A DNA stretch of 64,000 nt, taken from a virus. A program made the translations under genes and the position numbers. The stretch lies in IMG/VR virus record IMGVR_UViG_3300042393_000799; one strand, written 5' to 3'. Each line of letters opens with the position of its first letter. Position 1 is the first letter of the stretch. Positions 12,534 through 63,062 of the stretch are shown one piece after another. The notes beneath the pieces are model-generated. The model was given only the letters and a program-made list of their open reading frames with translations, searched no databases and was not told the DNA's origin.

Positions 12534-13286
12534 TTAGATGTTTTTTAGATTTTCAACCATCCAATCCAATTCTACTTGACTAGCTGCGTCTGAGATGGCA
12601 TTATCAGGATCTGGATGTGTTTCAATAAATACTCCATCATATTCAAAAATACGCGCAGCTAAAGAATATTGTTTTGCAAGTTTTCTGCTTCCACCAGTAA
12701 TACCATCACCTGACATTTGAGTTGAGTGTGTACAATCAAAGATAACTTTATCTGCAAATTGTTTCATAACATCAACACCTCTAAAATCTACAATTAATCT
12801 ATCGAAGCCAAATTGAGATCCACGTTCTGTAATCCATACTTGACATGTTGGATTTACTTCTTTGATCTTGGTAACAGCATGTTTCATTGCATCTGCAGAT
12901 AACCACTGACCTTTCTTAACGTTAATAATATCAAAGTGTTTTGCACATTCTATAAGAAGATCTGTTTGTCTACACAAGAATGCTGGAATTTGAATCACAT
13001 CTACTACATCTGATAATGGTAATGCTTGATCTGCAGTATGAATATCTGTAACAATTTTAAGACCTGGAAATTTATCTTTAACATTTCGCATGATCTGAAT
13101 ACCTTCGTCCAAACCTGGACCTCGATTAGAGTGAATTGAAGTTCTATTGGCTTTATCAAAGCTACCTTTAAGATACCAATCTTTTCCTTGCATTAAAGGA
13201 TATAGTGCATTTGCTACTTCTATGAAGTTGTCCTCGCTTTCAATGCTACAAGGACCTAGAATATATGTGTAATTTTCCATTTTCAT
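12534..13286 (-). CDS. kdsA: 3-deoxy-D-manno-octulosonate 8-phosphate (KDO8P) synthase
   Basis: conserved blocks GPCSIES, KGSFDKANRTSIHSNRGPGLDEG, ITDIH, VVDVIQIPAFLCRQTDL, NVKKGQ, ITERGSQFGFDRLIVD, FDCTHS match KdsA/DAHP-synthase family throughout. Confidence 0.88.
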   Translation of the reverse strand: MKMENYTYILGPCSIESEDNFIEVANALYPLMQGKDWYLKGSFDKANRTSIHSNRGPGLDEGIQIMRNVKDKFPGLKIVTDIHTADQALPLSDVVDVIQIPAFLCRQTDLLIECAKHFDIINVKKGQWLSADAMKHAVTKIKEVNPTCQVWITERGSQFGFDRLIVDFRGVDVMKQFADKVIFDCTHSTQMSGDGITGGSRKLAKQYSLAARIFEYDGVFIETHPDPDNAISDAASQVELDWMVENLKNI

Positions 13287-16205: not shown

Positions 16206-16497
16206 CTTTTGGTATTTCTTTTTCTATTTCTAGAGTCCATAGCCTATTATTAGGTACTACGAATTTTCTTTCATGTCCAAAAACATAAAAAGTTGTTTTA
16301 TATATATTTTGTCTAACTATTCTAGCTTTCTTAGCGCCTTTAATATAAACAATATCGTCTACATTAAAATCATTACCCCATAAAAACTGCATACCAATAA
16401 CAAGATTAGCAATCATGTCTTTGAATGTAAATGAAATTATAGCTACTGCTGTCACCCAACCCCATTCTGATATGTATTGTCCTATTAATTCTTTCAT
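16174..16497 (-). CDS. hypothetical membrane-associated protein
   Basis: 107-aa ORF with hydrophobic N-terminal segment. Confidence 0.4.
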   Translation of the reverse strand: MKELIGQYISEWGWVTAVAIISFTFKDMIANLVIGMQFLWGNDFNVDDIVYIKGAKKARIVRQNIYKTTFYVFGHERKFVVPNNRLWTLEIEKEIPKDETPENFPII

Positions 16498-16982
16498 ATT
16501 AGTCCCATTGCACTTAGATTTTGTAAAACCACTTGTTGACTTAACATTACAACTTGTGAAGCTTCGATTTTGTCCATAAATTTGGCATTATCAATTTCTT
16601 CACGCTGTAATTGTCCTTTAGGTACCACTAGATCTTTAAGTCCTATTTTAGACAGGTTATCTATTTCAACTATAAAATAATAAATAACTTTATTATACTT
16701 ATACTTTCTAGAAGTTAAAACAAATGTATGTTCATTTTTGCTTATTAAAGATTTAGGAACTTTGATACCGAACTCTTCATAAGTTTCTCTGATAGCAGCA
16801 TCTAAATGTGATTCACCTTCTTCGATGCCACCTTTAGATATACCATAACCTGTTCCTTCTTTTCTACCTCTAGATTGACCTAACAAAATTTTACCATCAA
16901 ACACAATCGCAAGACCAGCTGAATATCTAGTGTCTAGATATTTCTCGTTGATAAATTGATCATATTTTTTTAGGTGTTTCAT
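16494..16982 (-). CDS. Nudix hydrolase with family N-terminal motif (MKHLKKYDQFINE)
   Basis: Nudix box GGIEEGESHLDAAIRETYEEFG (Gx5Ex7REUxEExGU). Confidence 0.75.
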   Translation of the reverse strand: MKHLKKYDQFINEKYLDTRYSAGLAIVFDGKILLGQSRGRKEGTGYGISKGGIEEGESHLDAAIRETYEEFGIKVPKSLISKNEHTFVLTSRKYKYNKVIYYFIVEIDNLSKIGLKDLVVPKGQLQREEIDNAKFMDKIEASQVVMLSQQVVLQNLSAMGLI

Positions 16983-17709: not shown

Positions 17710-18603
17710 TTACTTAATTGATTTTATCCAAGATAATAAGTTTGTTTCAGGTTTCCAACCCAATTGTTTAGTTATTTTTGCAATATCTGCAACAGAACGC
17801 ATAGGTTCCTCTCTTTTTTCTAAATGTTTGATTTCACCACCAAATGCTTCAGCTACTTCAATAACTTGAGTTTCTGTGCCAGATCCAACATTATAAATTG
17901 GCATTGTGGTCTTAAATTCGGCCTGACTACTCATTATAATAGCATTGACTACATCTTTAACATAAATCCAATCTCTGGTTTGTGCACCATCACCAGTTAC
18001 AGTAATAGGTTGATAAGATTCATATTGTTGTAAGAAAATAGGCACTGCACTTCGGTATCCACCAGTAGCTCTTTGACCTTCACCAAAGACATTAAAAAAT
18101 CTTAGAGCTGTACACTTAAATTGAGGTTTATTATAACTCATCATCATGTGTTCCATTTCCAATTTAAATTCGGCATAAGGACTCATTGGACTTGGTGTAT
18201 CACTCTCTTTTAGAGGCACTTGTTCTGAATCACCATAAACTGCAGCAGTGGATGCAGCTACCATTGAAGTAGCTCCCATTTCATAAGCCCAACTCATGAC
18301 TCTTCTACTTGCAACACATATACCTGTCCAATATTTCATTGGCTCTTCTAAACTTTCAGGTACACTAATAGGTGCAGCTAAATGAAATAGAGTATCAAAT
18401 TTATAAGTTGGCAATTTACCATTAGTAATATCTATGGCTTCAATAATTAGATTTGGATGTGGCTCTAAATTGTCAATTGATCCAGTACTGAAATTATCAA
18501 GTACAGTTACAAACCATCCATTATTTAATAGTTCTTTAACTAGATGTGAACCGATAAAACCAGCTCCACCTGTAACTACAGCTTTCATACTTCTTTTTGA
18601 CAT
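17710..18603 (-). CDS. NAD-dependent sugar epimerase/dehydratase (extended SDR)
   Basis: N-terminal Rossmann motif VVTGGAGFIGSHLV; SDR-epimerase length and architecture. Confidence 0.8.
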   Translation of the reverse strand: MSKRSMKAVVTGGAGFIGSHLVKELLNNGWFVTVLDNFSTGSIDNLEPHPNLIIEAIDITNGKLPTYKFDTLFHLAAPISVPESLEEPMKYWTGICVASRRVMSWAYEMGATSMVAASTAAVYGDSEQVPLKESDTPSPMSPYAEFKLEMEHMMMSYNKPQFKCTALRFFNVFGEGQRATGGYRSAVPIFLQQYESYQPITVTGDGAQTRDWIYVKDVVNAIIMSSQAEFKTTMPIYNVGSGTETQVIEVAEAFGGEIKHLEKREEPMRSVADIAKITKQLGWKPETNLLSWIKSIK

Positions 18604-19292
18604 ATAATTTTAATATTATTTCCTGCATGATAATGATCTCCTAAAAGAGACCATTTATTTGCATCTTGTTTAACCCACCAATATATATGAGCACCTTTAC
18701 CAGCACATGGCATTGTTACATCAAATCTTTCGAATTTTTCAGTCAACTGACCATTTAGTATCTCGTTTATATTAACCCATGTACCATCTAAATAATTATC
18801 ATCGACTATTACTATAGCACCTGCACCTAATTTGGCTTCAATGGCTTCGAATTCTCGCCAACCATGTAATGCACTAGGTAAAGAATCACGTAAATCCAAA
18901 TCCCATGAATCTAAATGAACAATATCTACATGCTCATCAAACCTCTTTAAAAATTGGACGGAGTCTTCAGTAAAAAATTCTACAAATTCCAAACCTAATT
19001 CTGCAAATGCTGTTTTAGATTTAGCTATTATAATAGGATCTATATCTACGACCCACATTTTACCACCAGTTACTAAAGCTATATTAGCAAAAAAAGTACC
19101 CATCATACCATCTTGCCATGATTGACTAGCTCCAGTTTCTATAATATTAATAGGACCAATAGCTTTTACTTTACCAATTATAGCGCTAACTATAGTATCA
19201 ATTTGTCTTGCTCTTTCAGGTCGACCTCCATTGGCTTCTAGACTAGTTTTATATTGATCTGCTAATCGATTTATTATCCAAAAATTATCCAT
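18585..19292 (-). CDS. putative SAM-dependent methyltransferase (Methyltransf_24/TylF-like), tentative
   Basis: IIETGASQS Gly-rich motif followed by acidic VVDID and HLDSWD blocks. Confidence 0.35.
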   Translation of the reverse strand: MDNFWIINRLADQYKTSLEANGGRPERARQIDTIVSAIIGKVKAIGPINIIETGASQSWQDGMMGTFFANIALVTGGKMWVVDIDPIIIAKSKTAFAELGLEFVEFFTEDSVQFLKRFDEHVDIVHLDSWDLDLRDSLPSALHGWREFEAIEAKLGAGAIVIVDDNYLDGTWVNINEILNGQLTEKFERFDVTMPCAGKGAHIYWWVKQDANKWSLLGDHYHAGNNIKIICQKEV

Positions 19293-22200
19293 ACAGTTCT
19301 TTATTAATTACATTTATAACTCTGTCCGATCCAATTGTTTTAGTACATTCAAATTGTCGGTGTGTACCTTTCCATAAAGGACACCAATTCCAATCACCTT
19401 TGTCAAATGTATCCCAACCCCAACAACCATGACATACTTGATGATTGTTAATATAAATGGCATCTGCAAATTCTACATAAGGATCTGTAAAGCCACTAAT
19501 AATAATTACTTTTGCTCCAAGTGCCCAAGCGAACCAACTAAGGCCAGAGCTGATTCCAATAAACAGTTCAGCTTCATTGATAGCTCCTGCTACTAATGCA
19601 AGCTCTTCTGGTAATTGTTTAACCCCTTTTAATTGACTACCTTCTTTACTAGCATGGTACACACTAATCTCTTTACTATTACACCAGTCAATGGTTTCTT
19701 GCCATCCAGTAGGATTATTCCAATACTTGGCTTGTGCGGTACTTTGGGTAGCAATGACAATGGAGCGTTTTTTTGCAGTAGACTTGATCAAGAATTCGCG
19801 CGCTAGTTGAGGTCTTTGTTCTACGTACTCAGTACCTAAGCGATCTGAGGCGATTTTCCCCAGGGGTATTTGTCTCCAGTCATATTTATGTTCAGCACGT
19901 TTCCATGGTTCTTCCATGGTGTAAAAGACTCCGAGTGTAATTAGCGCACCCTTGTTAGGCACTGACCAGTCAATGATGTCTATGCCCTTTGAGCTATACC
20001 ATGCTTTGTCAAACAGCCAGGGTTTGTGTGTCTTCACATATAATTTGCTAAGCTTATGTGTGTCTATCACTGTGTGCAGCTGTCCCATGAAGCTCAGTGT
20101 GTCTCCAAGTGATGAGCTCGCCATTTCCACTGTCAGTTCCTGGCCTTCCAGGCTCAGACGTTCTGAATGAACTAGTTGGTCATTACTGTAAACCTTAACA
20201 GTCCACTGAGTCCACCAATTTCTTGCGGGCTTGTACCAACTTCCAGCTTGCAGGTCTGTAGCGTTCCAGACTAGATCTTGGTTATCATAAAACTCGGCCC
20301 GTAATTGACCACTTCCAGTTGACTTGATCGTTAATTTCGGACCATCTTGATACTCTAATGTCCATTCAGGTTGTTTGTGTGTCGGTGGCTTTTGAGGGCC
20401 TCGTGGGGTAGTTAAACATTGTTGGTACCATTGGATATGTTGTACAGTGAAACGTTTTAGATCGTCGTCTGGGATATTTTTTCCTTGTGCCTCGGATGAT
20501 TTGAGTGTTTTGATTAATTGGTCAACATTTCCATGGAGATCATCTGTGAATGGGACAATGTAAGGTGTAAACATGTCCTTATATTGCTCTAAGTTTCTAG
20601 AGAATGTGATTAGACCATGACCGATTGCTTCACGTAGTGCGAGTGGACTACACTCCCATGTTGAGTTAAACATAAATGCGTCACATGCACTCATAAAGAC
20701 ATCAACGTCGTTTCTCTCACCCCATATAGTAACATTACTTGGCAGCTTCTTCATAATTGGTCCCCAATATTGTTCGAAGTTTTCTGCTTGATTACCCACG
20801 AAATGAAAGTGATACTTTCCAGGAAATTGAGCTTCTACAATTCTAGCAATATCAACACCTTCTGCTTGATTCTTTCCTTGTGTCCAAAGACCTACATTTA
20901 ATATGTGAGTCTTATCGATAGCTAAACCTAATTTAGCTCTTGATTTTGCTTTATCAAATGCTGAAGGTTTTTGATTTAATATAGGATATTCTACAACTGG
21001 TTTTAAACCATCTCTATTTCCAAATGTTTCTAAATGATATGGAGTACACATCATGTACATATCTGGATCATTGATCTTATTGTTTGGATCAAACCAAATA
21101 TTGTGAGATGTTTCTACAATCTTCCATTGTTTATTGTAAAGCCATTCCATTGCACTTTGATCAATTTTATTAAATCCATCAAATGATTCTGGACATTCAT
21201 CAATATGAATAATATCTGGGTTTATTTCTAAAATCTTTGCTTTTAATCTTTCACCTCGCTCAGTGATGTCTATTGAATTTAAAAATCCTAATGAATGAAA
21301 TCTAGCACCTAATTTTTCTATAAGTTGATCTCGTTGTACATTGTAAATATCACTATATTGAGTATACTCTACTAAGTGGATTTCAAAGTCTTTTACATCT
21401 AACATAGCTTCAACTCTCTTTAAGACAAATTGAGGCATGCCTCCTGTACTTAAATGTGGTGCTAGGAATAGTAATTTAGTTTTGTTTGTCATTTCTTTGG
21501 TGTTAGGTTTCATATAGACATGGTCTACTAATAAGTCATTATACAAATCTATAACTGCATCGAATGTTTTATCCACTGTAGGATGACACTCGAATGTTGG
21601 TTTATATTCTAAGCAATGCAACTGTGGAGGAATAGCTTGAATAGTTCCATGTTCAATAATATTGTATTTCATATTACTAGAACAGAAAATATCGCAACTT
21701 CCACCAATATATTTGTATTTATAATCTTGTGAACCCTTTCTATAAGGTGCTCTTAATTTTGGATCTATTGAACTACCCAATTGAATAATATTTACATCAG
21801 TAGTTCCTGCAATGTGCAATAAACCAGAATCCATAGTAACTATAGCTCTAGCTTTATGATTCATCATCCATCTTAATTCAGCTGGATCATTTGTTGGATC
21901 ATTAAGTAAGTTAACTCCGAGTTTTATATTCAAATTCATTACTGGTTTGTCTACTGAGAATGTACCAACTTCATGAGAATCTCGACCAACTGCAACTACT
22001 GGAATACCTCTATCGTTTAATCTATCAACAAGTTCTTGCCACTTATCTTGATCCCATGTTCTACTTGCCCAAGTATAAGTTGGGTGTATTATAACATAGT
22101 TTTCAAATCCAAGATTTCTTTCACGTTCAATATACAAATCCATTTCCATTTCATCTTGAGTTAAACTAAACCCTAATGAAACTGCATGAAATTGTCTAAT

Positions 22201-22488
22201 ATCCATATTAGACGATCTAAATTCTACTTGTTCACCTCTTAAATCATATGCTTTACCAACAATTGGCATAAACGTACGATAAACCTTTATATTAGGGTCA
22301 TATCTAAGAGGGTCATCCAACTTTAGTGCTTTCGACACTAGTGGATGACCCTCGAATAAGAAAGGTTTACTAGAAAATACTATAAGCTGTGACTCACACG
22401 CTTTAGCTAACTTCCTAAGTGTAGGAATTGCTGCTATCGTGTCACCTAATGCAGGCGTATCTATACATATCGCAACTTGTTTTGACAT
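19285..22488 (-). CDS. multidomain glycosyltransferase (GT9 heptosyltransferase-like N- and C-terminal domains flanking a GT4 domain)
   Basis: N-term ICIDTPALGDTIAAIPTLRKL (GT9); middle FLAPHLSTGGMPQFV and EAIGHGLI (GT4/GT1); C-term GT9-like GISSGLSWFAWALGAKVIII. Confidence 0.75.
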   Translation of the reverse strand: MSKQVAICIDTPALGDTIAAIPTLRKLAKACESQLIVFSSKPFLFEGHPLVSKALKLDDPLRYDPNIKVYRTFMPIVGKAYDLRGEQVEFRSSNMDIRQFHAVSLGFSLTQDEMEMDLYIERERNLGFENYVIIHPTYTWASRTWDQDKWQELVDRLNDRGIPVVAVGRDSHEVGTFSVDKPVMNLNIKLGVNLLNDPTNDPAELRWMMNHKARAIVTMDSGLLHIAGTTDVNIIQLGSSIDPKLRAPYRKGSQDYKYKYIGGSCDIFCSSNMKYNIIEHGTIQAIPPQLHCLEYKPTFECHPTVDKTFDAVIDLYNDLLVDHVYMKPNTKEMTNKTKLLFLAPHLSTGGMPQFVLKRVEAMLDVKDFEIHLVEYTQYSDIYNVQRDQLIEKLGARFHSLGFLNSIDITERGERLKAKILEINPDIIHIDECPESFDGFNKIDQSAMEWLYNKQWKIVETSHNIWFDPNNKINDPDMYMMCTPYHLETFGNRDGLKPVVEYPILNQKPSAFDKAKSRAKLGLAIDKTHILNVGLWTQGKNQAEGVDIARIVEAQFPGKYHFHFVGNQAENFEQYWGPIMKKLPSNVTIWGERNDVDVFMSACDAFMFNSTWECSPLALREAIGHGLITFSRNLEQYKDMFTPYIVPFTDDLHGNVDQLIKTLKSSEAQGKNIPDDDLKRFTVQHIQWYQQCLTTPRGPQKPPTHKQPEWTLEYQDGPKLTIKSTGSGQLRAEFYDNQDLVWNATDLQAGSWYKPARNWWTQWTVKVYSNDQLVHSERLSLEGQELTVEMASSSLGDTLSFMGQLHTVIDTHKLSKLYVKTHKPWLFDKAWYSSKGIDIIDWSVPNKGALITLGVFYTMEEPWKRAEHKYDWRQIPLGKIASDRLGTEYVEQRPQLAREFLIKSTAKKRSIVIATQSTAQAKYWNNPTGWQETIDWCNSKEISVYHASKEGSQLKGVKQLPEELALVAGAINEAELFIGISSGLSWFAWALGAKVIIISGFTDPYVEFADAIYINNHQVCHGCWGWDTFDKGDWNWCPLWKGTHRQFECTKTIGSDRVINVINKELYG

Positions 22489-31615: not shown

Positions 31616-31747
31616 ATTCTTTTTATGTTTGTCTTTGCGATAATACTTCTTTTTATTACGATAAGGTGCAGGCACTTTAAGAGCATCAAACCATTCTTGT
31701 AATGTTATGTTAATTTTTTCTAATTTGATTTTCTTAGTCTCTTTCAT
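31604..31747 (-). CDS. Lys/Arg-rich micro-ORF (47 aa) coupled to upstream gene by TAATG overlap; stop codon lies inside cassette motif A
   Basis: MKETKKIKLEKINITLQEWFDALKVPAPYRNKKKYYRKDKHKKNDCS; not in ORF track. Confidence 0.3.
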   Translation of the reverse strand: MKETKKIKLEKINITLQEWFDALKVPAPYRNKKKYYRKDKHKKNDCS

Positions 31748-32661
31748 TATGCTTGTTCTTTATAAGTTACAATTAATTCACCAATTCTGGTTAAAATTGA
31801 TCTTTGAGAGTTGTGTTCTTTTGCTTTAACATCTAAACTTCTAACTGAATTTTGCAAATGTTGTAATTGAGTCAATAAGTTTCCAACAGTTGCATCATTT
31901 ACTTTCTTCTGAGATTGTTTTGCTAAATGGAAACTAATTAAGTCCTCTAATTTCTTACGATTATCATTCATTCTTTCAATACACTTATCATATGTTGAAA
32001 TAATAGAAAGACTTGCAGATTTTTCAAAATCTTCCATTCCACTAACATAAGAACCGTCAATCTTAACAAATCTTAAACCAGAATGTGTAGGAATATCGAT
32101 TCTTGTTTTGTCAATTCCAAAACTTGCACAAACTTCAAAGAATAATTCGTTATTGTTTGGTGTAAATTTACAATTAGTTTCAAGAATATGTTTAGCATCC
32201 ATTGAGTGCAATGGTACAATATTTTTATATGCGCTTACTGGATATTCAATGATCTCGATTTCCATATTGTGAATCTCTTCAATATTTTCATAAATTGCTT
32301 TATAAGTTCTAAAGAAACGTGTAGCAAATACCTCATCCTCGATTGTGTTATAAACATCTTCGTCGAGTTCTTCATTATAAGTTTTTGACTCAACAACTTT
32401 TTCAAGAATTTTGTTATATTCTTTTAAACTGATTGTGGTCATGTTTTCTACATTATCATAACCGATTAAATTACGACTAGAACTTTTATATGTGATAGTT
32501 TCTGGTTTCTCAGAAATAGTAATAAGATCTGAACCGTTTGAAGTACCTCTTAAGGCATCTACTAATGGTTTACCGTTAACAATAAGAGCTCTATTATAGA
32601 TAGTTTTAACTACATATAAACCTGTTTGAGAATCGTAACCTACTTTAATTGAATTTTCCAT
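31747..32661 (-). CDS. hypothetical protein
   Basis: 304-aa ORF preceded by cassette. Confidence 0.45.
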   Translation of the reverse strand: MENSIKVGYDSQTGLYVVKTIYNRALIVNGKPLVDALRGTSNGSDLITISEKPETITYKSSSRNLIGYDNVENMTTISLKEYNKILEKVVESKTYNEELDEDVYNTIEDEVFATRFFRTYKAIYENIEEIHNMEIEIIEYPVSAYKNIVPLHSMDAKHILETNCKFTPNNNELFFEVCASFGIDKTRIDIPTHSGLRFVKIDGSYVSGMEDFEKSASLSIISTYDKCIERMNDNRKKLEDLISFHLAKQSQKKVNDATVGNLLTQLQHLQNSVRSLDVKAKEHNSQRSILTRIGELIVTYKEQA

Positions 32662-32673
32662 AATGATTATCTT

Positions 32674-32754
32674 TTAATTATAGAGCTAATATACACAAAA
32701 AAAGCCAAACAAAAAAATATTTGGCTAATTATTTTCATAAAGTTACGAACAATT
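32674..32754 (-). promoter_or_regulatory. repeated intergenic cassette
   Basis: ttaattatagagctaatatacac...agccaaacaaaaaaatatttggct...ttattttcataaagttacgaacaatt. Confidence 0.7.
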
Positions 32755-32765
32755 GTTTGTTAAAC

Positions 32766-32798
32766 CAAAAAGACTCATCATTCGATGAGTCTTTTTTA
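32766..32798. terminator. bidirectional hairpin terminator downstream of tRNA-Ala
   Basis: agactcatc/gatgagtct inverted repeat (32771-32792) with flanking A- and T-runs. Confidence 0.55.
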
Positions 32799-32799
32799 G

Positions 32800-32873
32800 T
32801 GGAGGTGACAGGAATCGAACCTGCGACCCTCTGCGTGCAAGGCAGATGCTCTAGCCAACTGAGCTACACCCCC
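32800..32873 (-). tRNA. tRNA-Ala-TGC: tRNA-Ala (anticodon TGC)
   Basis: rc reads GGGGGTGTAGCTCAGTTGGCTAGAGC...CTTGCAC...GGTTCGATTCC...CACCTCCA; cloverleaf with 7-bp acceptor, T-loop TTCGATT. Confidence 0.85.
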
Positions 32874-33095
32874 GTGATATTATATATCTTATTAATTTTA
32901 GCAATGTGAGAAACTAGCCTATTCCATTTAAAACTCATATTACTTCGGGATCCAACCGCTCTAGCCTCAGGTTCAGTATTAGAACCACTACTTATCGTTA
33001 TTGACTAGTGACCTTTATCTATATATTTGTCCACCACTTTAGCGTCAGAGTGAATAAGTCGTTAACGCCTACTCGAACAGTTTTTTAAGGTTTAA

Positions 33096-33269
33096 TTAGG
33101 CGTTGTTCTTCTCAGATACTTCTGTTCTAACAACTTGTGCTAAGTTTTTGATCTCTTGCATAGCTTTACGAACTCTTGTTCCAGCTGCTTTGTTTCCGTT
33201 TTCGAAGAATTTTGTTGCGTCAGCTTGAACTGCGTTTAATACTTCTTGAATTTGTGCTAATGTTTCCAT
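33096..33269 (-). CDS. Bacteroidetes-type histone H1-like DNA-binding protein (57 aa)
   Basis: translation METLAQIQEVLNAVQADATKFFENGNKAAGTRVRKAMQEIKNLAQVVRTEVSEKNNA; KFFENGNKAAGTRVRKA signature of small 'histone H1' proteins of Bacteroidota; below ORF-track size cutoff. Confidence 0.55.
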   Translation of the reverse strand: METLAQIQEVLNAVQADATKFFENGNKAAGTRVRKAMQEIKNLAQVVRTEVSEKNNA

Positions 33270-33338
33270 GTTTTATATTTGTTTATTTATTATATATGTT
33301 ATACTGGGCTGTTTTGGTTTGTTTCAATACTGTGTGAA

Positions 33339-33500
33339 TTAATCTTCTTCTAATAGTCCTATCCACAATGCAACATATATCCAGAATGTATATGGTACAA
33401 GTAAGAATATTAATCGCCATGCTATAGCTGATGTTCCAGTAGCTTTAGCAATACCACCGCAGACACCTCCGAGGTAACTGTTTGTTTTACTTCTTTTCAA
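33339..33500 (-). CDS. PspC-domain small membrane protein, apparent TTG start (no in-frame ATG)
   Basis: (L)KRSKTNSYLGGVCGGIAKATGTSAIAWRLIFLLVPYTFWIYVALWIGLLEED matches PspC core GVCGG...R..F. Confidence 0.4.
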   Translation of the reverse strand: MKRSKTNSYLGGVCGGIAKATGTSAIAWRLIFLLVPYTFWIYVALWIGLLEED

Positions 33501-33636
33501 TTTTATTGTTTTTTATTATGTTACCTTTTTCGTCCACTTCTGGTGCCTTATACATATGATATGCAATAAAACATCCTGTTATCAGCAAGTAACCAATGAT
33601 TACTTCTATTGTATTGTTTTGTATTAATCCCACCAT
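33487..33636 (-). CDS. 49-aa hydrophobic micro-ORF immediately upstream of, and out of frame with, the PspC ORF
   Basis: MVGLIQNNTIEVIIGYLLITGCFIAYHMYKAPEVDEKGNIIKNNKIEKK. Confidence 0.2.
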   Translation of the reverse strand: MVGLIQNNTIEVIIGYLLITGCFIAYHMYKAPEVDEKGNIIKNNKIEKK

Positions 33637-34400
33637 CTTTGGATATTTTCTTCCATTAACTTAAATAACAATTTGTTTGCTCTGTTGTGATTGATATGTC
33701 CAATATTCATTGCAATAACTTGTTTGTCATCTTCACGTCCATCACGACCAAATGGACCTTCACCTGCTAAAACTCTTTTATAGATCAATGGATATTTCTT
33801 AAAGAAATCATCAAAATTCTCTTCTAATAAACGAGATTCCCATGAACTCAAACCTTCTTTTCCTGGCACATCTGCAAACCAATGCTTAGTCTTATGATAG
33901 TCAGAATATTCAGAGCTATAAAAATCATCATCGATTAGTTTCATTAATCTAACACATGTCATCATAATTTCAGCATCTCGTTGGGCTCTTGTATGAATAT
34001 CTCGTTCTCCGATATATTTTGATTGAGCTTTGATTTTGTGCATCATGATTTCAAAGATATAGTGAGAATCCCAATTACGATCTTTCCAAATGATAGGAAA
34101 CCAATAAATCAAGTTCTTAATACCTGTTTTAAACATTTTATGGTAATACTTACCTTCATGATCCCACCATAATGGAATCCATTCAAGTTTTCTTACAATC
34201 CATAGTTTTTTGGCTCTCTCTTCAGCCCATTCATCAAATACGTCTAATTCTGGTTCAGATGAAGGACTTTCACAGTCTAGTATATCTGTATCGCTCATGT
34301 TACATGTTGATCCAACTGGACAACATTCGTCATCGCAATGTGATTTTGTAATAGGACAAATCATGTCGTCCTTTACTGTGTAATCTTTTTCTGCTTCCAT
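33624..34400 (-). CDS. hypothetical protein with Cys-rich N-terminus
   Basis: 258-aa ORF; CPITKSHCDDECCPVGSTC. Confidence 0.45.
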   Translation of the reverse strand: MEAEKDYTVKDDMICPITKSHCDDECCPVGSTCNMSDTDILDCESPSSEPELDVFDEWAEERAKKLWIVRKLEWIPLWWDHEGKYYHKMFKTGIKNLIYWFPIIWKDRNWDSHYIFEIMMHKIKAQSKYIGERDIHTRAQRDAEIMMTCVRLMKLIDDDFYSSEYSDYHKTKHWFADVPGKEGLSSWESRLLEENFDDFFKKYPLIYKRVLAGEGPFGRDGREDDKQVIAMNIGHINHNRANKLLFKLMEENIQRWWD

Positions 34401-39334: not shown

Positions 39335-39593
39335 TTTCTTTGTGTATTGAATTTTTACAATTTCCTTTATGGGATCCCCATTGAGTATTACCCATTCCGA
39401 CTACAATATATTCACAACCTTCAAGAGTGTAGACTCTATAATTTTGATCAGAGTATTGTGAATTACTATCAAGTTCCATTCGATGCGGATTCGGTTGAGT
39501 TGAAACTTGTACATTACCTTCGCAGCTTGTAACCACAAAGGCTACAAGCGCTGCAAAGATTAATATTAATAATGTTACATTTTTTCTGTTCAT
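39321..39593 (-). CDS. small lipoprotein
   Basis: signal peptide + lipobox VTSC. Confidence 0.45.
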   Translation of the reverse strand: MNRKNVTLLILIFAALVAFVVTSCEGNVQVSTQPNPHRMELDSNSQYSDQNYRVYTLEGCEYIVVGMGNTQWGSHKGNCKNSIHKENGSN

Positions 39594-41173
39594 TATGAAT
39601 TAGTTAAACGTTCACGAATTTCTGTTAGTGTAGTTTGGTTTTCGAATTGGCCATCTTTATAGATAGTTTTTAATTTACCAGTGGCTTCATTTTCCCAAGT
39701 ACATTGATCTTCTAATAAGAAACATGTTTCGTCTCCGGCAACTCTTAATAAACCTTTTGCAGATTTCTTAATACCGTCATCAGTGATTGGATCTTTAAAG
39801 ATTTCACGACCTGTGATGATTTCTTCTGAATGTGTATAGTTACCATTCTCGTCTTTAACAGTTCTAAAATGTTCTTTAACTTCAACATAAGTTGCTTTCA
39901 TTGCAAAACCAAAAGTATCTCTAGTGTTATATTGGTATGTAAAACTTCCAACGCCTAATACAATATTTGTACTTGCGAAACCTTTTGCTTCTAATCTTGT
40001 AAAGATTTGTTCTGCACGATCTAACGTTATTGAATCTCCGTAGATTGCTCCAATATGAGAATCAAGAACTTTGTAACCTTGTTCATTGATAGTTCCACCG
40101 AATACATCCCAAAGTAATTCAATAACTCCTTTTACTTCTGGTTTGTTTAAATATTCATCGGTAGGATTAACTTCTGCTACTCCACCTAAGTAAGCAACCA
40201 CATCATTATCATGGTGCGCGTTTGTTTTAATAACACTTGCGCCGCAAATAATATCTACTGGATCACCAGAGTCGGGTCTAATAACTACCTTACCATCACG
40301 AGCTAAAATCTCTTCTTTCAAGGTAACAATATGTTCAGTACAAACTTTCCATAAGTCCCAAGTATCTGATACGATTGAAAGAATTCCTGTTGGATATGTT
40401 TCCATCAAGTTTCTAAATGTTCCAACCTCATCTTCTTTAGATCCAGCACACATAACTGAGTGTTCAGTTGCATTCACAGATCCAGCAACAAATCCAGTTT
40501 CTCCATAGAATTTACGAGCTCCAAAGATTGCTGGTAAACTGTCTGAACCTGAGAAACTTGTTAAGTGACCCAATCCTGAACTAATAGTTGCATCAATAGA
40601 ATCTAAACCTCTCATTGAAAAATCATGTGCTTGCCAATCTACGAACCAACCTTTTTCAGCATCGGTTTTTTCTTGCCATGATGTAAATAATTTACGGTAA
40701 GCATGTGCAATAGTTGCTGAAGTCATTGGTTTCCATAACAAGTTAGAAATAATTGTTTCTAAGTAGTTTGTAATCCAATAGAAATCTGGATGTGTATTGT
40801 AAATTGTCAATACAGGAACTCTCATTGGTACTAAAGAACCTTCTTCGATTGTTTTTACCACGATTGGTAAATAACCTAAATCATGTAATGCTTCAAAGTG
40901 ACTAACATCATAGTCAGTATTTAAGTACATTGACAATTCACGTTTCATTTCGCCGCAAACTTCATCTTTAGGTTTGCTAAAGAAATCTTTGTCAAATGCT
41001 TCGTGAATTTGTTTGATTACCATTTGTTGTCCAAATGATACTAATTGGTCGCATCCTTTAGGAGCATACTTATTACTTCTAGGTGTGAAGTTTGAATAAA
41101 CCAACGTTGTTCCTTTTGGATATTGTTGGTGATGTCCTGTTTTGTAACCGTCTGTTAAAAATAATGGGTTCAT
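39593..41173 (-). CDS. nadV: nicotinamide phosphoribosyltransferase-family enzyme (NadV/NAMPT, or the Namat variant)
   Basis: N-terminal signature LFLTDGYKTGHHQQYP and full-length (526 aa) similarity pattern to NAMPT. Confidence 0.82.
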   Translation of the reverse strand: MNPLFLTDGYKTGHHQQYPKGTTLVYSNFTPRSNKYAPKGCDQLVSFGQQMVIKQIHEAFDKDFFSKPKDEVCGEMKRELSMYLNTDYDVSHFEALHDLGYLPIVVKTIEEGSLVPMRVPVLTIYNTHPDFYWITNYLETIISNLLWKPMTSATIAHAYRKLFTSWQEKTDAEKGWFVDWQAHDFSMRGLDSIDATISSGLGHLTSFSGSDSLPAIFGARKFYGETGFVAGSVNATEHSVMCAGSKEDEVGTFRNLMETYPTGILSIVSDTWDLWKVCTEHIVTLKEEILARDGKVVIRPDSGDPVDIICGASVIKTNAHHDNDVVAYLGGVAEVNPTDEYLNKPEVKGVIELLWDVFGGTINEQGYKVLDSHIGAIYGDSITLDRAEQIFTRLEAKGFASTNIVLGVGSFTYQYNTRDTFGFAMKATYVEVKEHFRTVKDENGNYTHSEEIITGREIFKDPITDDGIKKSAKGLLRVAGDETCFLLEDQCTWENEATGKLKTIYKDGQFENQTTLTEIRERLTNS

Positions 41174-41267: not shown

Positions 41268-41717
41268 TACAAGATTTGCTAAAACACTCTTAACTATACC
41301 GATTTCTGCACGACCTTGGTATCTTTTGTTAAATTCGCCAATAGTTTTACCTTGTAATGCTTGTGGATTTGTAACTATTCCACTAAATTCTTGCATAATT
41401 TCTGTAAGAGCATCTACAATTTCTTGAGGTTCCATTTGTGCTGGCATATATCTTCTTAAGATTGCACACTCTTCTGATTCTTTTTTAGACAATTCTGGTC
41501 TATTTGCCAAATCATACATTTTAATGGATTCCTCACGTTGCTTGATTCCTTTATTAATTATTTTAATAACCTCTTCATTCGTTGCAACCCAAGTTCCATT
41601 TCCCTTTTCAGCATTCGTGATTGCTGCTTTAATACTATTAAGTGCCATTTTGGCTACTTCGTCTTTTGCTTTCATTGCAGTTATAAAGTCTGCATTTATT
41701 TGTTCTCTAATTATCAT
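41259..41717 (-). CDS. YqeY/GatB-domain protein
   Basis: REQINADFITAMKAKD...LRRYMP pattern of YqeY family. Confidence 0.6.
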   Translation of the reverse strand: MIIREQINADFITAMKAKDEVAKMALNSIKAAITNAEKGNGTWVATNEEVIKIINKGIKQREESIKMYDLANRPELSKKESEECAILRRYMPAQMEPQEIVDALTEIMQEFSGIVTNPQALQGKTIGEFNKRYQGRAEIGIVKSVLANLVDC

Positions 41718-42552
41718 TGTCTATGTTTTTAGTTGGGTTTATTAATCCTTTAATGAACCATCTGTCTTGTGTAAATGTTGGAGTTTCTACAACTTGCCAT
41801 TTGTTTCTCATTACAATTTGAGTAGGGTCTATTACATGTGTTTCACCATCATTAATAAACTCTTTGGTTTTTACAAGTACTGGAACTTCCACCTTTGCAA
41901 TTACTGCACCTCGTTTTAGACGAAAATCATAGTCATTCCAATTGATTCCTTTTTGGAAGATCAATTCTTGCATGTCACTTGTTTTTTTACCATGTAATTC
42001 TTTAGTACTATAAAGACTTTGAGCAACTGAAGAAATTGAATTTCTTACAGCGTCTTGTTGTCTCCAGATAAAATAGTTTTCTACCTCATCAATAAATGGA
42101 ATTTGAAATGCTCTTGCGTCGAATTCAGCCATTTTGAATTTTTCAATATGTTCCGGTTCTAAAAAGATCATGCTATTTTTCATGTATCTCATTAACCTAA
42201 GTTTATTGAATTCTGCAGTGGCCATAGAAGCAGCAACTGATACCATTTTTTGTAGGTTGTTGTCAAACCAAGCGTGAGTTCCTAGGTCATCAAAGTCTGT
42301 TAGAACTAAACTAATCTCATCTGATTGTACATAACCAAATTTAGCACCTTGAATGTTTTTACATAAATATGCAGTAGTTGCATTCATGTCTTCAATAAGT
42401 CCTTGGTCAAATGGTCTCTCTAATCCTTTCGTATAGGTGTGAAAGGCTTTTCCGTCAATACGGATAATTGTAAATGTTCTCCTTGGGAGTTTGATTCTAG
42501 TTCTATCTTCGTAGAACTCTTTCATGCGATCGCCTAATGCATCGTTTTTCAT
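41707..42552 (-). CDS. Thg1-like 3'-5' nucleotidyltransferase (tRNA-His guanylyltransferase family)
   Basis: family motifs RIDGKAFHTYTKGL and GYVQSDEISLVL (cf. Thg1 RLDGRNFH / AYGQSDEYSF). Confidence 0.75.
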   Translation of the reverse strand: MKNDALGDRMKEFYEDRTRIKLPRRTFTIIRIDGKAFHTYTKGLERPFDQGLIEDMNATTAYLCKNIQGAKFGYVQSDEISLVLTDFDDLGTHAWFDNNLQKMVSVAASMATAEFNKLRLMRYMKNSMIFLEPEHIEKFKMAEFDARAFQIPFIDEVENYFIWRQQDAVRNSISSVAQSLYSTKELHGKKTSDMQELIFQKGINWNDYDFRLKRGAVIAKVEVPVLVKTKEFINDGETHVIDPTQIVMRNKWQVVETPTFTQDRWFIKGLINPTKNIDNDN

Positions 42553-46228: not shown

Positions 46229-46444
46229 TTATATTAAATTTAATTGTGTTAGTTCTTCAATGGCAGCATCGAATGCTTCTTGCCATGTTCTGTATAAATA
46301 CCAATCTCTTACTTCAATTTTTTCATAGTTACCAAAGTGTTCATATTTGTATATGTCAAATGCAAACTTTGGAGCACTTGTACGGTCTACTTCTATTTCT
46401 ATAACGTAACCATGCTGTGTAAATAAAGAATCTATTGTATACAT
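46229..46444 (-). CDS. hypothetical small protein
   Basis: 71-aa ORF. Confidence 0.3.
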   Translation of the reverse strand: MYTIDSLFTQHGYVIEIEVDRTSAPKFAFDIYKYEHFGNYEKIEVRDWYLYRTWQEAFDAAIEELTQLNLI

Positions 46445-47376
46445 TATATTACTTTAAATGCAGTTGTGTTTGTTTTTACATCATATTCATTATCAGCAAT
46501 ATCTCTATGAGAATTTGTTGTGTAAATACGTTCGAAATATTTGTTTAGCTCTGTAAAACCAGCACTAAATATTCCATGAGTAACTACTAAATAAATTTTA
46601 GCACTTGGTCTGCTTGCTTTAATAGCTTTAGCTAATTCAATAAAAGTTCTACCACCATCACAAATATCATCAATGATTACATATTTCATATCATCATTAA
46701 CTGAGTTAGGGTCTCCGATAGATCCTGGTAAGTTTGGTACTTCTGTTTTAAGAATGTTACCAGTTCTCATATCTCTAACTTTGTTTGCCGTAACAATATT
46801 TTGGATTTGAAACTTCTTAGCAACATCAAAGATTTTCTTGTATGCACCAGCATCTGGGCTTACTAAACAAATTCTTTCTTGAGCATCTCTCTTATTATCA
46901 ATATCTGTAAGTGCATATTTAACTACTGTATGATTATCTGTTTTCTCATAGTTATTTAAACATGCTTCTAAAACATCTGAATGTGGATCCAATGTAATTA
47001 CTGTTATGAAGTTTAAAGAGTTAATGATTGGACAAATAACTTGTTTCAAATAGTTAACACCACCGTCAACAAATTTACGATCTGAACGAGCTCCCATGAA
47101 GTATGGAACGTAAAGTGCGATTTCTCGATTTGGTTTAATATTTCTGATTGCTGCTGTTGCACAAATAATTAATTCTAAGTCCTTAAAACTATTTAAACGT
47201 GAACTGATTTTTACAGCATCTTCATATATCATTAAGTCATTCCAATCAATAAGGTCTACTGTTTGTTGACCATCTGGAAATTGACTAATTTTGTATTTAA
47301 TGTCTGATTTTTCTGGATTAACTAAGTCTAATGTTATCATCTTTAAGTTGTTTTTAATTATATGTAAATATACCAA
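46444..47376 (-). CDS. prs: ribose-phosphate pyrophosphokinase-family enzyme (Prs, or the ADPR-pyrophosphokinase Adps variant)
   Basis: PYFMGARSDRK, TLDPHS, VSPDAGAYKK, PRTase motif VIIDDICDGGRTF. Confidence 0.8.
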   Translation of the reverse strand: MVYLHIIKNNLKMITLDLVNPEKSDIKYKISQFPDGQQTVDLIDWNDLMIYEDAVKISSRLNSFKDLELIICATAAIRNIKPNREIALYVPYFMGARSDRKFVDGGVNYLKQVICPIINSLNFITVITLDPHSDVLEACLNNYEKTDNHTVVKYALTDIDNKRDAQERICLVSPDAGAYKKIFDVAKKFQIQNIVTANKVRDMRTGNILKTEVPNLPGSIGDPNSVNDDMKYVIIDDICDGGRTFIELAKAIKASRPSAKIYLVVTHGIFSAGFTELNKYFERIYTTNSHRDIADNEYDVKTNTTAFKVI

Positions 47377-52729: not shown

Positions 52730-53374
52730 TTACCAATTTTTCTTGTAATGCACATCATCAACCCATGAGAATAAACGTGTCTCTTCAACATCATGCAAGA
52801 TAATAGTCTTATCAGTTACTTTGTCATTATAGAAATATTCATAATTAAATAAAGCGACATCCAGATCCATTTTTTCAATAATCTTATTATTGAATGTTTT
52901 ACATCCATGAGCCCATGTAATTCTATCATAAACACTAAGACATTCATTTATGATTCTACTTTGAGGTGTAGATCCATAAACTGTACAATCAATAAGAGTA
53001 TTGTGTTCTTGAGTTGGTTTCATACCTGCAAAGAATGTATGTTCTTCTGAGAGTTGATCCAATATTATATCAAATGGTCTAATTGGTTTTGCATCTATAT
53101 CACAATAAATACCTCCAAAATCTCTAAGTAATAATAACCTAACTCTATCGGCAATAAAAGCCCATTTATAAATTTCAGGTTCTTTTACATAGTTTTGTAA
53201 AAATGGATCATCTTTGTACAAATCATTGAAAATATCATCATGACTCCATAACTTATATTCCCAATCTGGATGCATTGCTTGCATCTCTTCTCCAAATCTT
53301 TTGCACCAATCTGGTACTTCTTTATAGCCAATCCAAACTTGATGTAGTTTCTTTGGTATTTTATTTACTGTCAT
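52730..53374 (-). CDS. DxD glycosyltransferase (GT32/OCH1-like 'Gly_transf_sug')
   Basis: KIPKKLHQVWIG N-terminal motif and CDIDAKP DxD motif. Confidence 0.55.
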   Translation of the reverse strand: MTVNKIPKKLHQVWIGYKEVPDWCKRFGEEMQAMHPDWEYKLWSHDDIFNDLYKDDPFLQNYVKEPEIYKWAFIADRVRLLLLRDFGGIYCDIDAKPIRPFDIILDQLSEEHTFFAGMKPTQEHNTLIDCTVYGSTPQSRIINECLSVYDRITWAHGCKTFNNKIIEKMDLDVALFNYEYFYNDKVTDKTIILHDVEETRLFSWVDDVHYKKNW

Positions 53375-62662: not shown

Positions 62663-62904
62663 TTGTTGTAATATTTATATATGTATCTAATAAAGCTGGC
62701 TAGTTAAATGAATAAAATAACAGGATGCTGATTTGCTTTTTCCAATAAAAGTTTTTAAATTTGCTGGAAGCATCCTTTATATTTTAAAAATACGGAATAC
62801 AGTTTGTTTGAGTAAAAGTCAAAGTTTGTAAATTTGCTGTATGTATTCCAATATGGTCAGGTTTCTGTTTTTGCTTACCAGTGTGTTTACCAATTTCACC
62901 ACTC

Positions 62905-62975
62905 CTCAATTTTTCATAGTTAATTTGTTGAGGAGGTAGGACTCGAACCTACAATGTACCGGTTCTGATTGCTTT
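62905..62975 (-). other. tRNA-like 3' fragment (T-arm + acceptor-like strand) with no complete cloverleaf
   Basis: rc ...GTAGGTTCGAGTCCTACCTCCTCA followed by a hairpin using the same CTCCTCA; no D/anticodon arms found. Confidence 0.3.
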
Positions 62976-63062
62976 TTAATTGCTGTAAGAAACCTTTAAT
63001 ATTTTAAAGAACTTTGTTATTTGATAATTATACTTGATCAATTAAAAAAGTTTCATTTTTTG

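Follow-up and report, generated by a model that had tools for sequence, protein, structure and literature searches.

A short Hc1-domain gene under purifying selection in an uncultured AT-rich jumbo phage, and its association with tRNA genes and a putative tRNA-like RNA module

The chlamydial protein Hc1 (HctA) is composed of two parts: according to two reports (PMC2848022, PMC3469542), its N-terminal domain serves in dimerisation, and its Lys-rich C-terminal domain binds DNA. Genes of the corresponding Pfam family, PF07432, are also carried by phages, having been published for the freshwater jumbo “moraphages” (Perez-Hernandez et al. 2025, PMC12619734) and annotated in the cyanophage S-SRM01. 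Here we describe such a gene, designated hc1, in a stretch of viral DNA of 64,000 nucleotides (IMG/VR record IMGVR_UViG_3300042393_000799; hereafter the window). The exact protein is already present in public databases. The present analysis adds a correction of the “histone” label at the level of domains, the recognition of the phage copies as a distinct group under purifying selection, and the description of a phage-specific promoter motif, a putative operon with a tRNA-Ala gene and a link to what may be an undescribed module of tRNA-like small RNAs. We put at roughly 0.6 the probability that the product is a stand-alone dimeric Hc1 hairpin which, expressed from a phage-type promoter, supplements the function of the short Hc1-domain proteins of the host type, and which is not a histone-like condenser of DNA.

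The first-pass annotation of this DNA had placed here, on the minus strand, an unannotated 57-codon gene for a histone-H1-like protein, absent from the accompanying list of open reading frames (ORFs). Translation reproduces the quoted peptide exactly (METLAQIQEVLNAVQADATKFFENGNKAAGTRVRKAMQEIKNLAQVVRTEVSEKNNA), and a Pfam search matches it to PF07432 (Hc1) at 82.2 bits (cut-off 23.5; E = 2.3e-23) over profile positions 1-56 of 57, so the similarity, for which a profile search had been suggested, is significant. The ORF is indeed missing from the list, probably as an artefact of its length, since 57 residues fall below the 60-residue default of the ORF lister; it is not, however, unannotated, as public gene callers have the exact protein, tagged PF07432, in 193 blocks of an assembly collection, on contigs of up to 260,917 bp. 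Homologues number 858 in a collection of 5.8 billion proteins, and at least 580 hc1-related stretches occur in the IMG/VR viral contigs. An exhaustive hidden Markov model search places the Hc1 family at 2,540 clusters at 50% identity. No PHROGs family was matched by the protein (best E = 0.11). Among the phage copies of hc1, the ratio of non-synonymous to synonymous substitution rates (dN/dS) is 0.06-0.26, and the window differs from its sister contig L001 by three synonymous and no non-synonymous changes in the gene, the flanking DNA being 92-96% identical. A length of 57 codons, under common ORF cut-offs, might suggest a chance ORF or a miscalled gene. This reading is refuted by the Pfam E-value, the hundreds of homologues, the dN/dS values well under 1 and the purely synonymous differences from the sister contig, and its probability is practically nil; hc1 is a genuine conserved phage gene under purifying selection.

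Examination of 52 aligned homologues shows 15 invariant columns, among them A28, A29, G30, T31, R32, R34 and K35. The phage protein holds all of the family-invariant residues (D17, K20, N26, AAGTR at positions 28-32, R34, K35, K41, A44, Q45 and R48), which are likewise invariant across 133 unique viral and cellular sequences, and it almost certainly belongs to the Hc1-domain family. The equivalog model of chlamydial HctA (NF051889) scores 26 bits against a cut-off of 100, which leaves the protein outside that equivalog, and because the model is aligned only at positions 5-53 of 121, the phage protein corresponds to the Hc1 N-terminal domain alone. It stops at residue 57, and the Lys-rich C-terminal tail is absent. 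With 8 Lys and Arg residues against 7 Asp and Glu residues, its net charge is +1 (pI 8.1). The median net charge is +1 for the viral and +3 for the cellular homologues; their median lengths are 60 and 59 residues, respectively, and they have the same invariant core. Since some family members carry Lys/Ala-rich tails (member P0144 ends in ...PKAAKKAAPAAAKKAAPAAAKKAAPAKKK), the tail is a separable add-on that the phage protein lacks. A fragment of chlamydial Hc1 comprising residues 2-57 reportedly dimerised and was alpha-helical, and is said not to have bound nucleic acid.

An AlphaFold2 model of the monomer, computed from the 52-sequence alignment, is a two-helix hairpin with helices at residues 2-24 and 27-56 and a turn at G25-N26 (predicted local distance difference test score, pLDDT, 96.9). 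The PDB holds no sequence relative of the protein (best E = 5.8), and a Foldseek search with the model returned no significant neighbour there (best E = 0.73). The top neighbours, all non-significant, are designed homo-oligomeric hairpins, the ribosomal protein uL29 and the coiled-coil arm of a synthetase, and since these are only generic helical hairpins, no function is transferred from structure. A winged helix or linker histone domain (PF00538) was found neither by Pfam at E of 1 or below nor among the Foldseek neighbours, and there is no Pfam match to a histone, the model having two helices and not the three of the histone fold. The conserved hydrophobic positions form an arc of about 120 degrees on helix 1 and of about 180 degrees on helix 2, more than would be buried in a hairpin standing alone. 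The arc thus fits, indirectly, dimerisation into a bundle. Residues R34, K41, R48 and K55 form a basic ridge with i+7 spacing, and there are seven conserved basic positions, including the invariant R32, R34, K35, K41 and R48. By analogy with the chlamydial protein, the phage protein would rather probably dimerise, whereas direct binding of nucleic acid of any kind can be put forward only tentatively.

These features bear on the idea, advanced in the first-pass annotation and put forward also in the moraphage paper (PMC12619734), that the phage protein compacts or marks DNA in the manner of a histone, be it for packaging, for genome marking or for host shut-off. Membership of the Hc1 family and the seven conserved basic positions are consistent with such a role, and the curated and isolated phages that carry the gene almost all have genomes of 240-640 kb, for which a need for DNA management is plausible. 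The part of Hc1 that binds DNA is, however, precisely the one missing; a net charge of only +1, a helical hairpin fold and the lack of any Linker_histone or histone-fold match argue in the same direction. Tailed relatives such as P0144 exist, which marks the tail as a separable part that is lacking in this protein, and hc1 is situated among genes for tRNAs and DNA metabolism, not among head or packaging genes. Compaction is in our estimation unlikely. Because the phage proteins hold only the domain reported to dimerise, and not the DNA-binding, H1-like part, claims of DNA compaction by phages on their account need direct evidence. What stands of the original “histone-H1-like” assignment is the Hc1 family and the nearest cellular relatives, Bacteroidota proteins of 57-60 residues; the nucleoid role is not supported. 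Our literature search on the short Bacteroidota “histone H1” form found no experimental work, and “nucleoid protein” is therefore an inherited label. The “histone” label overstates what is known of the hc1 protein.

The same domain composition brings to mind a dominant-negative mimic, which would form mixed dimers with an Hc1-family protein of the host and thereby disable it, much as truncated H-NS (H-NST) antagonises H-NS. The hc1 protein consists of the domain reported to dimerise, its interface-like residues are invariant across phage and cellular copies, so that mixed dimers are plausible, and some cellular members have DNA-binding tails which a mimic could uncouple. The closest cellular homologues, however, like most of the family, are themselves tail-less proteins of 57-60 residues, and beside them the phage copy is not “defective”. 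We consider the mimic very improbable.

The 80 best cellular matches are short proteins (57-60 residues) of 48-61% identity, and about 76 of them are from Bacteroidota (Pedobacter, Sphingobacterium, Mucilaginibacter, Cytophagales). Viral copies match their closest viral counterpart at a median of 94% identity and their closest cellular one at 56%. The hc1 protein of the window reaches 61% with cellular sequences and 73-100% with other viral contigs, and among 62 viral sequences, one alone matches a cellular copy as well as it does a viral one. This clustering is drawn from pairwise identities over an alignment of 57 residues rather than from a full phylogeny. By pairwise identity, hc1 does not group inside the cellular sequences, as a recent host origin would have it, and since the phage copies resemble one another far more, the gene is a long-term phage resident and not a recent capture.

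In a curated phage collection, hc1 was found in 21 records, nearly all within the size range given above, which include Lak megaphages, huge uncultured phages and cyanophage S-SRM01. A second hc1-bearing group is formed by marine viral contigs of up to about 64 kb, in which a conserved GC-rich hairpin and a Shine-Dalgarno-like AAGGAAG precede the gene. As marine contigs and a cyanophage carry it, hc1 is not limited to jumbo phages or to one host phylum. A group of higher G+C content (L034, L035, L039, L045, L053, L054, L056-L062, L064, L068, L071-L073 and L075-L079) displays, about 110 nt 5' of hc1, a near-invariant CCCCCC(C)ACAGGGAGGCACAGGGTTATCAGGTGCCTC together with a Shine-Dalgarno-like AAAGGAAGAG. 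The former element could be a conserved leader hairpin or a regulatory site, and the leaders of this group show that phages of Shine-Dalgarno-using hosts have hc1 as well.

The immediate surroundings of hc1 in the window are summarized in Table 1. The promoter-like element ends 28 nt 5' of the ATG and starts just past the stop codon of an ORF with a PspC domain. Downstream, the terminator-like hairpin is the sole site of its kind in the interval 32600-33700 (one against 0.3 expected in the terminator scan), and it probably ends the transcript of hc1 and tRNA-Ala. As the spacer between these two genes contains no terminator-like site, their co-transcription is likely, and the sequence thus points to a likely unit composed of promoter, hc1, tRNA-Ala and terminator.

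The promoter-like element recurs among relatives. Of 43 unique upstream regions from AT-rich viral loci, 24 have the pattern [A/T]TGAAA[C/T]-N17-TATAA at 35-67 nt before the hc1 ATG (background rate, 0.019 per 120 nt). The pattern is absent from all of 75 cellular hc1 genes, of which 31 have the Bacteroidota -7 box TAnnTTTG instead. The flanks of hc1 are unalignable across the AT-rich relatives; the motif is kept nevertheless. In the window, with one mismatch allowed, it occurs 9 times against 2.1 expected (none of 100 shuffles reaches 9), with eight of the nine on the coding strand, and four of the five coding-strand matches to a stricter pattern lie in non-coding DNA. In appearance, the motif looks like a -35/-10 pair of the sigma-70 type and not like a Bacteroidota promoter. 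Neither a phage sigma factor nor an RNA polymerase nor a Ro60/TROVE protein was found among the approximately 50 window proteins scanned. Like the promoter, the vicinity of tRNA genes distinguishes the phage copies: 19 of 40 unique AT-rich viral loci have a tRNA on the same strand within 1 kb of hc1, as do only 3 of 75 cellular loci. Having been moved onto a phage-type promoter and sitting among tRNAs, hc1 is clearly useful to the phage.

Table 1. Features of the hc1 locus, the putative RNA module and the promoter-like motifs in the window
Feature	Position	Strand	Description
hc1 coding sequence	33096..33269	minus	ATG start, 57 codons plus TAA; stand-alone domain of the Hc1 N-terminal type (PF07432)
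Promoter-like element	33298..33327	minus	TTGAAAC (33327-33321), 17 nt, TATAAC (33303-33298); exact match to TTGAAAC-N17-TATAA
5' leader	33270..33297	minus	A-rich CATATATAATAAATAAACAAATATAAAAC, no Shine-Dalgarno sequence
hc1/tRNA-Ala spacer	32874..33095	minus	222 nt, untranslated
tRNA-Ala (UGC)	32799..32873	minus	ARAGORN; Rfam tRNA 71.5 bits; same strand as hc1, downstream of it
Terminator-like hairpin and T-run	32693..32726	minus	AGCCAAA...TTTGGCT; hairpin itself 32726-32703
RNA module cluster (putative)	62719..63056	minus	Promoter-like ATGAAAC-N17-TATAA (63056-63028) and units A, B and C
Unit A	62994-62858	minus	tRNA-like domain, closed acceptor arm
Unit B	62851-62791	minus	Shorter module, same design
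Unit C	62778-62719	minus	Shorter module, same design
Promoter-like motifs, exact	33327-33299, 29104-29076	minus	
Promoter-like motifs, one mismatch each	63056-63028, 42630-42602, 37323-37295, 26241-26213, 12259-12231, 3524-3496	minus	

Both sides of this unit provide further observations. The PspC-domain ORF that adjoins the hc1 promoter on its 5' side (33342-33500, minus strand; 53 codons, TTG start) matches PF04024 at 48 bits (cut-off 25; E = 1.1e-12) and is missing from public gene calls of the same DNA. Just 3' of the hc1-tRNA unit, strains with an identical Hc1 protein differ from each other (L161 6529-7107; window 31747-32661; L162/L163). At this place L161 has a methyltransferase of 192 residues (PF13489), the window has an ORF of 304 residues without a recognisable family, and the others have neither; gene exchange seems to have a hot spot here.

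In the related contigs L003-L012 and L017, the DNA directly 3' of hc1 is 78-81% identical to positions 62761-63006 (minus strand) of the window. In the window itself this module lies next to the main tRNA cluster, at a distance of 30 kb from hc1, and copies elsewhere are located at 5412-5665 in L003, 5411-5659 in L006, 5183-5386 in L008 and L017, and 5368-5510 in L043. The module comprises three units in tandem, each with a terminal stem of 7 bp followed by (T/A)T(A/C)CAGCAA. In an alignment of nine sequences, the fold of unit A is that of a tRNA which has been opened at the anticodon loop and closed at the acceptor arm, such that its parts follow in the order 3' strand of the anticodon stem, variable region, T-arm, 3' strand of the acceptor stem, loop, 5' strand of the acceptor stem, D-arm and 5' strand of the anticodon stem. 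The T-arm is invariant (GTAGG/TTCGAGT/CCTAC), and compensatory changes are evident in the acceptor stem, in the D-stem (C-G in five of the sequences, U-A in the other four) and in the anticodon stem; in L008 and L017 a 5-bp hairpin capped by GAAA takes the place of the acceptor arm. In the B and C units the terminal stem is paired in 77 of 77 cells, with double changes in three of the seven pairs, although the pairing figure is partly circular, as the units were chosen for perfect stems.

The distribution of the module was assessed in two ways. A covariance model (R1) trained on 11 B and C units scores 74.6 and 69.5 bits on the module of the window and detects seven further copies outside its training set, in divergent relatives, at 36-48 bits and all on the hc1 strand; several of the R1 copies follow the hc1 stop codon at a distance of about 10-15 nt. 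R1 has no matches in the cellular hc1 loci or in S-SRM01. Independently of hc1, all viral contigs were searched by the signature of unit A. Of the matches, 31 contain the tRNA-like core, and in 26 of these hc1 lies upstream on the same strand at a distance of 12-645 nt, which is 23 nt or less in 15 cases. Where the upstream sequence suffices for a judgement, hc1 is present in 24 of 27 unit-A loci, compared to 0 of 74 matches without the tRNA-like core, which presumably arose by chance. The RNA module is thus the most consistently conserved neighbour of the phage hc1 genes.

The module region contains no ORF of more than 41 codons, and no Rfam family matches it at threshold. The element at 62755-63010 was considered as a tRNA, an intron-containing tRNA or a transfer-messenger RNA (tmRNA) and rejected, as ARAGORN returned nothing even in relaxed or tmRNA mode. 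Its single-sequence folding z-score is -0.86, which is not significant; the permuted-tmRNA model of Rfam gives 13.6 bits, and no Y-RNA family is listed among the Rfam results for it. Below threshold, the Class I RNA of Dictyostelium (RF01414; gathering score 41.5) aligns at 62721-62775, 62793-62848 and 62858-62994 (minus strand) with 29.6, 21.9 and 24.7 bits, respectively. RNAs of this family have a like design, in which a short terminal stem is combined with the motif CCUUACAGCAA. At such scores, membership of RF01414 was rejected and the resemblance, striking as the architecture is, was taken as convergence or coincidence. The layout recalls the tRNA mimics of bacterial Y-RNA-like (YrlA) RNAs and the stable small RNAs of the T4 tRNA region. 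On its sequence features, the module may be an undescribed family of phage non-coding RNAs.

The spacer between hc1 and tRNA-Ala was likewise considered as a non-coding RNA and dismissed: its folding z-score is +0.18, it matches neither Rfam nor R1, and it is kept only in L001 (89%). When it is compared with positions 62700-63061 (minus strand), four collinear 7-8-mers (GTTCGAGT, AGTGGTG, AACCTGA and TGGAATA) recur in unit A and the first part of unit B. The spacer may be what decay has left of the RNA module that follows hc1 in the relatives, each of these matches being by itself at chance level. Elsewhere in the window, a Thg1-like gene (41707-42552, minus strand) is found directly 3' of one of the promoter-like motifs. 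Its product is of the tRNA-His guanylyltransferase/3'-5' polymerase family (PF04446, E = 2e-29) and may act in the repair of tRNA 5' ends.

The linkage of module and gene suggests an RNA-related role for hc1. The Hc1 protein might bind, chaperone or protect the phage tRNAs or the tRNA-like small RNA, or the RNA might regulate hc1, the protein then forming one functional unit with the structured small RNAs downstream (an RNA-protein pair or an RNA-regulated gene). Besides the excess of neighbouring tRNAs over the cellular loci, the unit-A census speaks for this explanation, as does the close spacing of R1 units to the hc1 stop codon in divergent relatives; moreover, in the window a single type of promoter-like motif precedes hc1, the RNA module and the Thg1-like gene. 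The chlamydial system offers two precedents: the title of a 1994 report by Pedersen, as cited in PMC12619734, has full-length Hc1 binding RNA as well as DNA, and PMC3469542 describes control of hctA by the small RNA IhtA. Nevertheless, the linkage could equally be inherited synteny of one phage lineage, or a consequence of tRNA islands gathering small accessory genes. Adjacency has been lost in this phage and is evidently dispensable, since the window and its closest relatives keep the module 30 kb from hc1. Other hc1-bearing phage groups are without the module, and the RNA binding of Hc1 is ascribed to the tail that is missing here. We consider the RNA role, and with it the joint functional unit, distinctly improbable. 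Were it true, the tail-less phage “histone H1” proteins, and perhaps those of Bacteroidota, would be factors associated with RNA or tRNA and not chromatin proteins, expressed from a phage-specific class of promoter common to tRNAs and a Thg1-like tRNA-repair enzyme.

The explanation that we prefer remains the dimeric stand-alone Hc1 hairpin. In this scheme, the hc1 protein would be produced in quantity along with the phage tRNAs, and its hairpin would pair with a second copy to give a small helical bundle, like residues 2-57 of chlamydial Hc1. The bundle would carry the invariant basic ridge (R32, R34, K35, K41 and R48) twice, and the protein would be a small dimeric adaptor that supplements or replaces the host's own short Hc1-domain protein. 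Binding of such an adaptor to a polyanionic partner, for instance nucleic acid, would be no more than modest, and the adaptor would not condense DNA as histones do. Several points weigh against this scheme. Dimerisation and weak DNA binding are extrapolated from a single chlamydial protein, and a model of the monomer does not speak to oligomerisation. The AAGTRVRK block, invariant in phages and bacteria, could equally mark a specific site for nucleic-acid binding. The promoter and terminator are consensus matches only, and the tight linkage with tRNA-like RNA in the relatives hints at an RNA-related role beyond that of a generic adaptor.

The first-pass annotation also took the gene as a pointer to the host phylum, which is no more than suggestive: the nearest cellular homologues are from Bacteroidota, but the phage copies are at most 61% identical to them, cluster apart and occur in a Synechococcus phage as well. 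A Bacteroidota host is plausible; hc1 alone does not establish it. A Shine-Dalgarno sequence (GGAG or GAGG) precedes 2 of 78 window genes versus 3.6 by random expectation, and at positions -16 to -3 the leaders of the 78 minus-strand genes are 50-67% A and poor in G. Leaders of this kind, A-rich and devoid of a Shine-Dalgarno sequence, match translation initiation in Bacteroidota. On the other hand, the TAnnTTTG box is depleted in the non-coding DNA of the window (1 in 8.3 kb, or 0.12 per kb, versus 0.70 per kb in coding DNA), and because this is contrary to the expected enrichment, the box is unusable as support for a Bacteroidota host. The near-absence of Shine-Dalgarno sequences and the depletion of this box point in different directions as to the host, and the occurrence of hc1 in cyanophage S-SRM01 and the sigma-70-like motif are against a Bacteroidota host or neutral. 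For similar phages, the moraphages, Bacteroidota hosts have been predicted (PMC12619734). The genes of lipopolysaccharide (LPS) type imply a diderm host. Neither the homologues of the nucleotide-sugar epimerase (7,218 matches) nor a set of ten NCBI-sourced homologues, named only “hypothetical protein”, gave a pointer to a host.

The window has a G+C content of 31.7% overall, and nearly all of its coding sequence lies on the minus strand. ARAGORN identifies seven tRNAs in it. Its genes for DNA and nucleotide metabolism include an ATP-dependent DNA ligase, a PD-(D/E)XK exonuclease, a NUDIX protein and a protein similar to phosphoribosyl pyrophosphate (PRPP) synthetase; others code for NAMPT, of nicotinamide adenine dinucleotide (NAD) salvage, for endolysin-like and glucosaminidase proteins of cell-wall lysis and for an SPFH protein. 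NAMPT, the PRPP-synthetase-like phosphoribosyltransferase and the NUDIX hydrolase (39593-41173, 46444-47376 and 16494-16982, respectively, minus strand) look like a phage NAD salvage set as in other jumbo phages. A set of envelope-sugar genes (12534-13286, 17710-18603, 19285-22488 and 52730-53374, minus strand) comprises a protein of the KDO8P-synthase family (DAHP_synth_1, E = 4e-52), a nucleotide-sugar epimerase, a fusion of 1,067 residues between a GT9 heptosyltransferase-type and a GT1 glycosyltransferase, and a DXD glycosyltransferase, and suggests that the phage alters the surface of a diderm host by remodelling its LPS or some other glycan.

A megablast search with 8 kb around hc1 found no match among 50,697 phage records, and the DNA ligase shares no more than 31% identity with any phage isolate; there is consequently no cultured relative to lend a host or a function. 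Metagenomic contigs of 68-261 kb contain identical or nearly identical DNA, and relatives are found on contigs of 234-256 kb. With no match to a known phage and matching contigs of such size, the source is a jumbo phage that is uncultured, rich in AT and about 260 kb in size. Habitat, genome size and the presence of PF07432 are compatible with the published description of the freshwater moraphages (PMC12619734), a lineage defined by the phylogeny of major capsid protein (MCP), large terminase subunit (TerL) and DNA polymerase (PolB), whose marker genes lie outside the window.

The value of the hc1 finding is mainly corrective, since “histone H1” labels are spreading in phage papers and annotations and invite ideas of phage chromatin. 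Purifying selection has kept the gene conserved in a large group of freshwater jumbo phages sampled worldwide, and at 57 residues its product is easily synthesized and tested. The linked RNA module is the more novel lead, and provides a testable hypothesis for the role of short Hc1-domain proteins.

Among the known systems, Hc1/HctA of Chlamydia trachomatis (about 125 residues) has a homologous alpha-helical N-terminal domain, with the core GNKAA..R.R common to both proteins. The phage protein differs in being without the Lys/Ala-rich C-terminal half, the DNA- and RNA-binding part of HctA, and phage hc1 is not tied to a developmental cycle. This C-terminal half is also the portion of HctA that resembles eukaryotic H1. 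With the eukaryotic linker histones H1/H5 (PF00538) themselves the phage protein has in common the inherited name alone, their winged helix and basic tails being absent. The functional analogy to H-NST lies in a stand-alone oligomerisation domain of a two-domain nucleoid family, carried on a mobile element; sequence and fold are unrelated, and the tail-less form of the Hc1 family is also the predominant one in cells, so that the phage protein is not a simple truncated antagonist.

The short Bacteroidota “histone H1” proteins of 57-60 residues, by comparison, have the same length, a single PF07432 domain, no tail and the same invariant residues, and they are the true cellular counterparts of phage hc1. 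They are at most 61% identical to it and more basic (median charges as given above), and their genes, unlike those of the phages, often carry the TAnnTTTG box, lack the phage motif and are not adjacent to tRNAs. The moraphages and S-SRM01 resemble the present phage in encoding Hc1-family genes on genomes of 200-300 kb. The “histone H1” coding sequence of the Synechococcus phage S-SRM01 (QPX48246.1), from a phage with a cyanobacterial host, is 52% identical to hc1 and is without the RNA module; the gene is never mentioned in the S-SRM01 paper. Neither the moraphage paper nor the S-SRM01 annotation notes that these proteins consist of the dimerisation domain only, or remarks on their promoter and their tRNA or RNA-module context.

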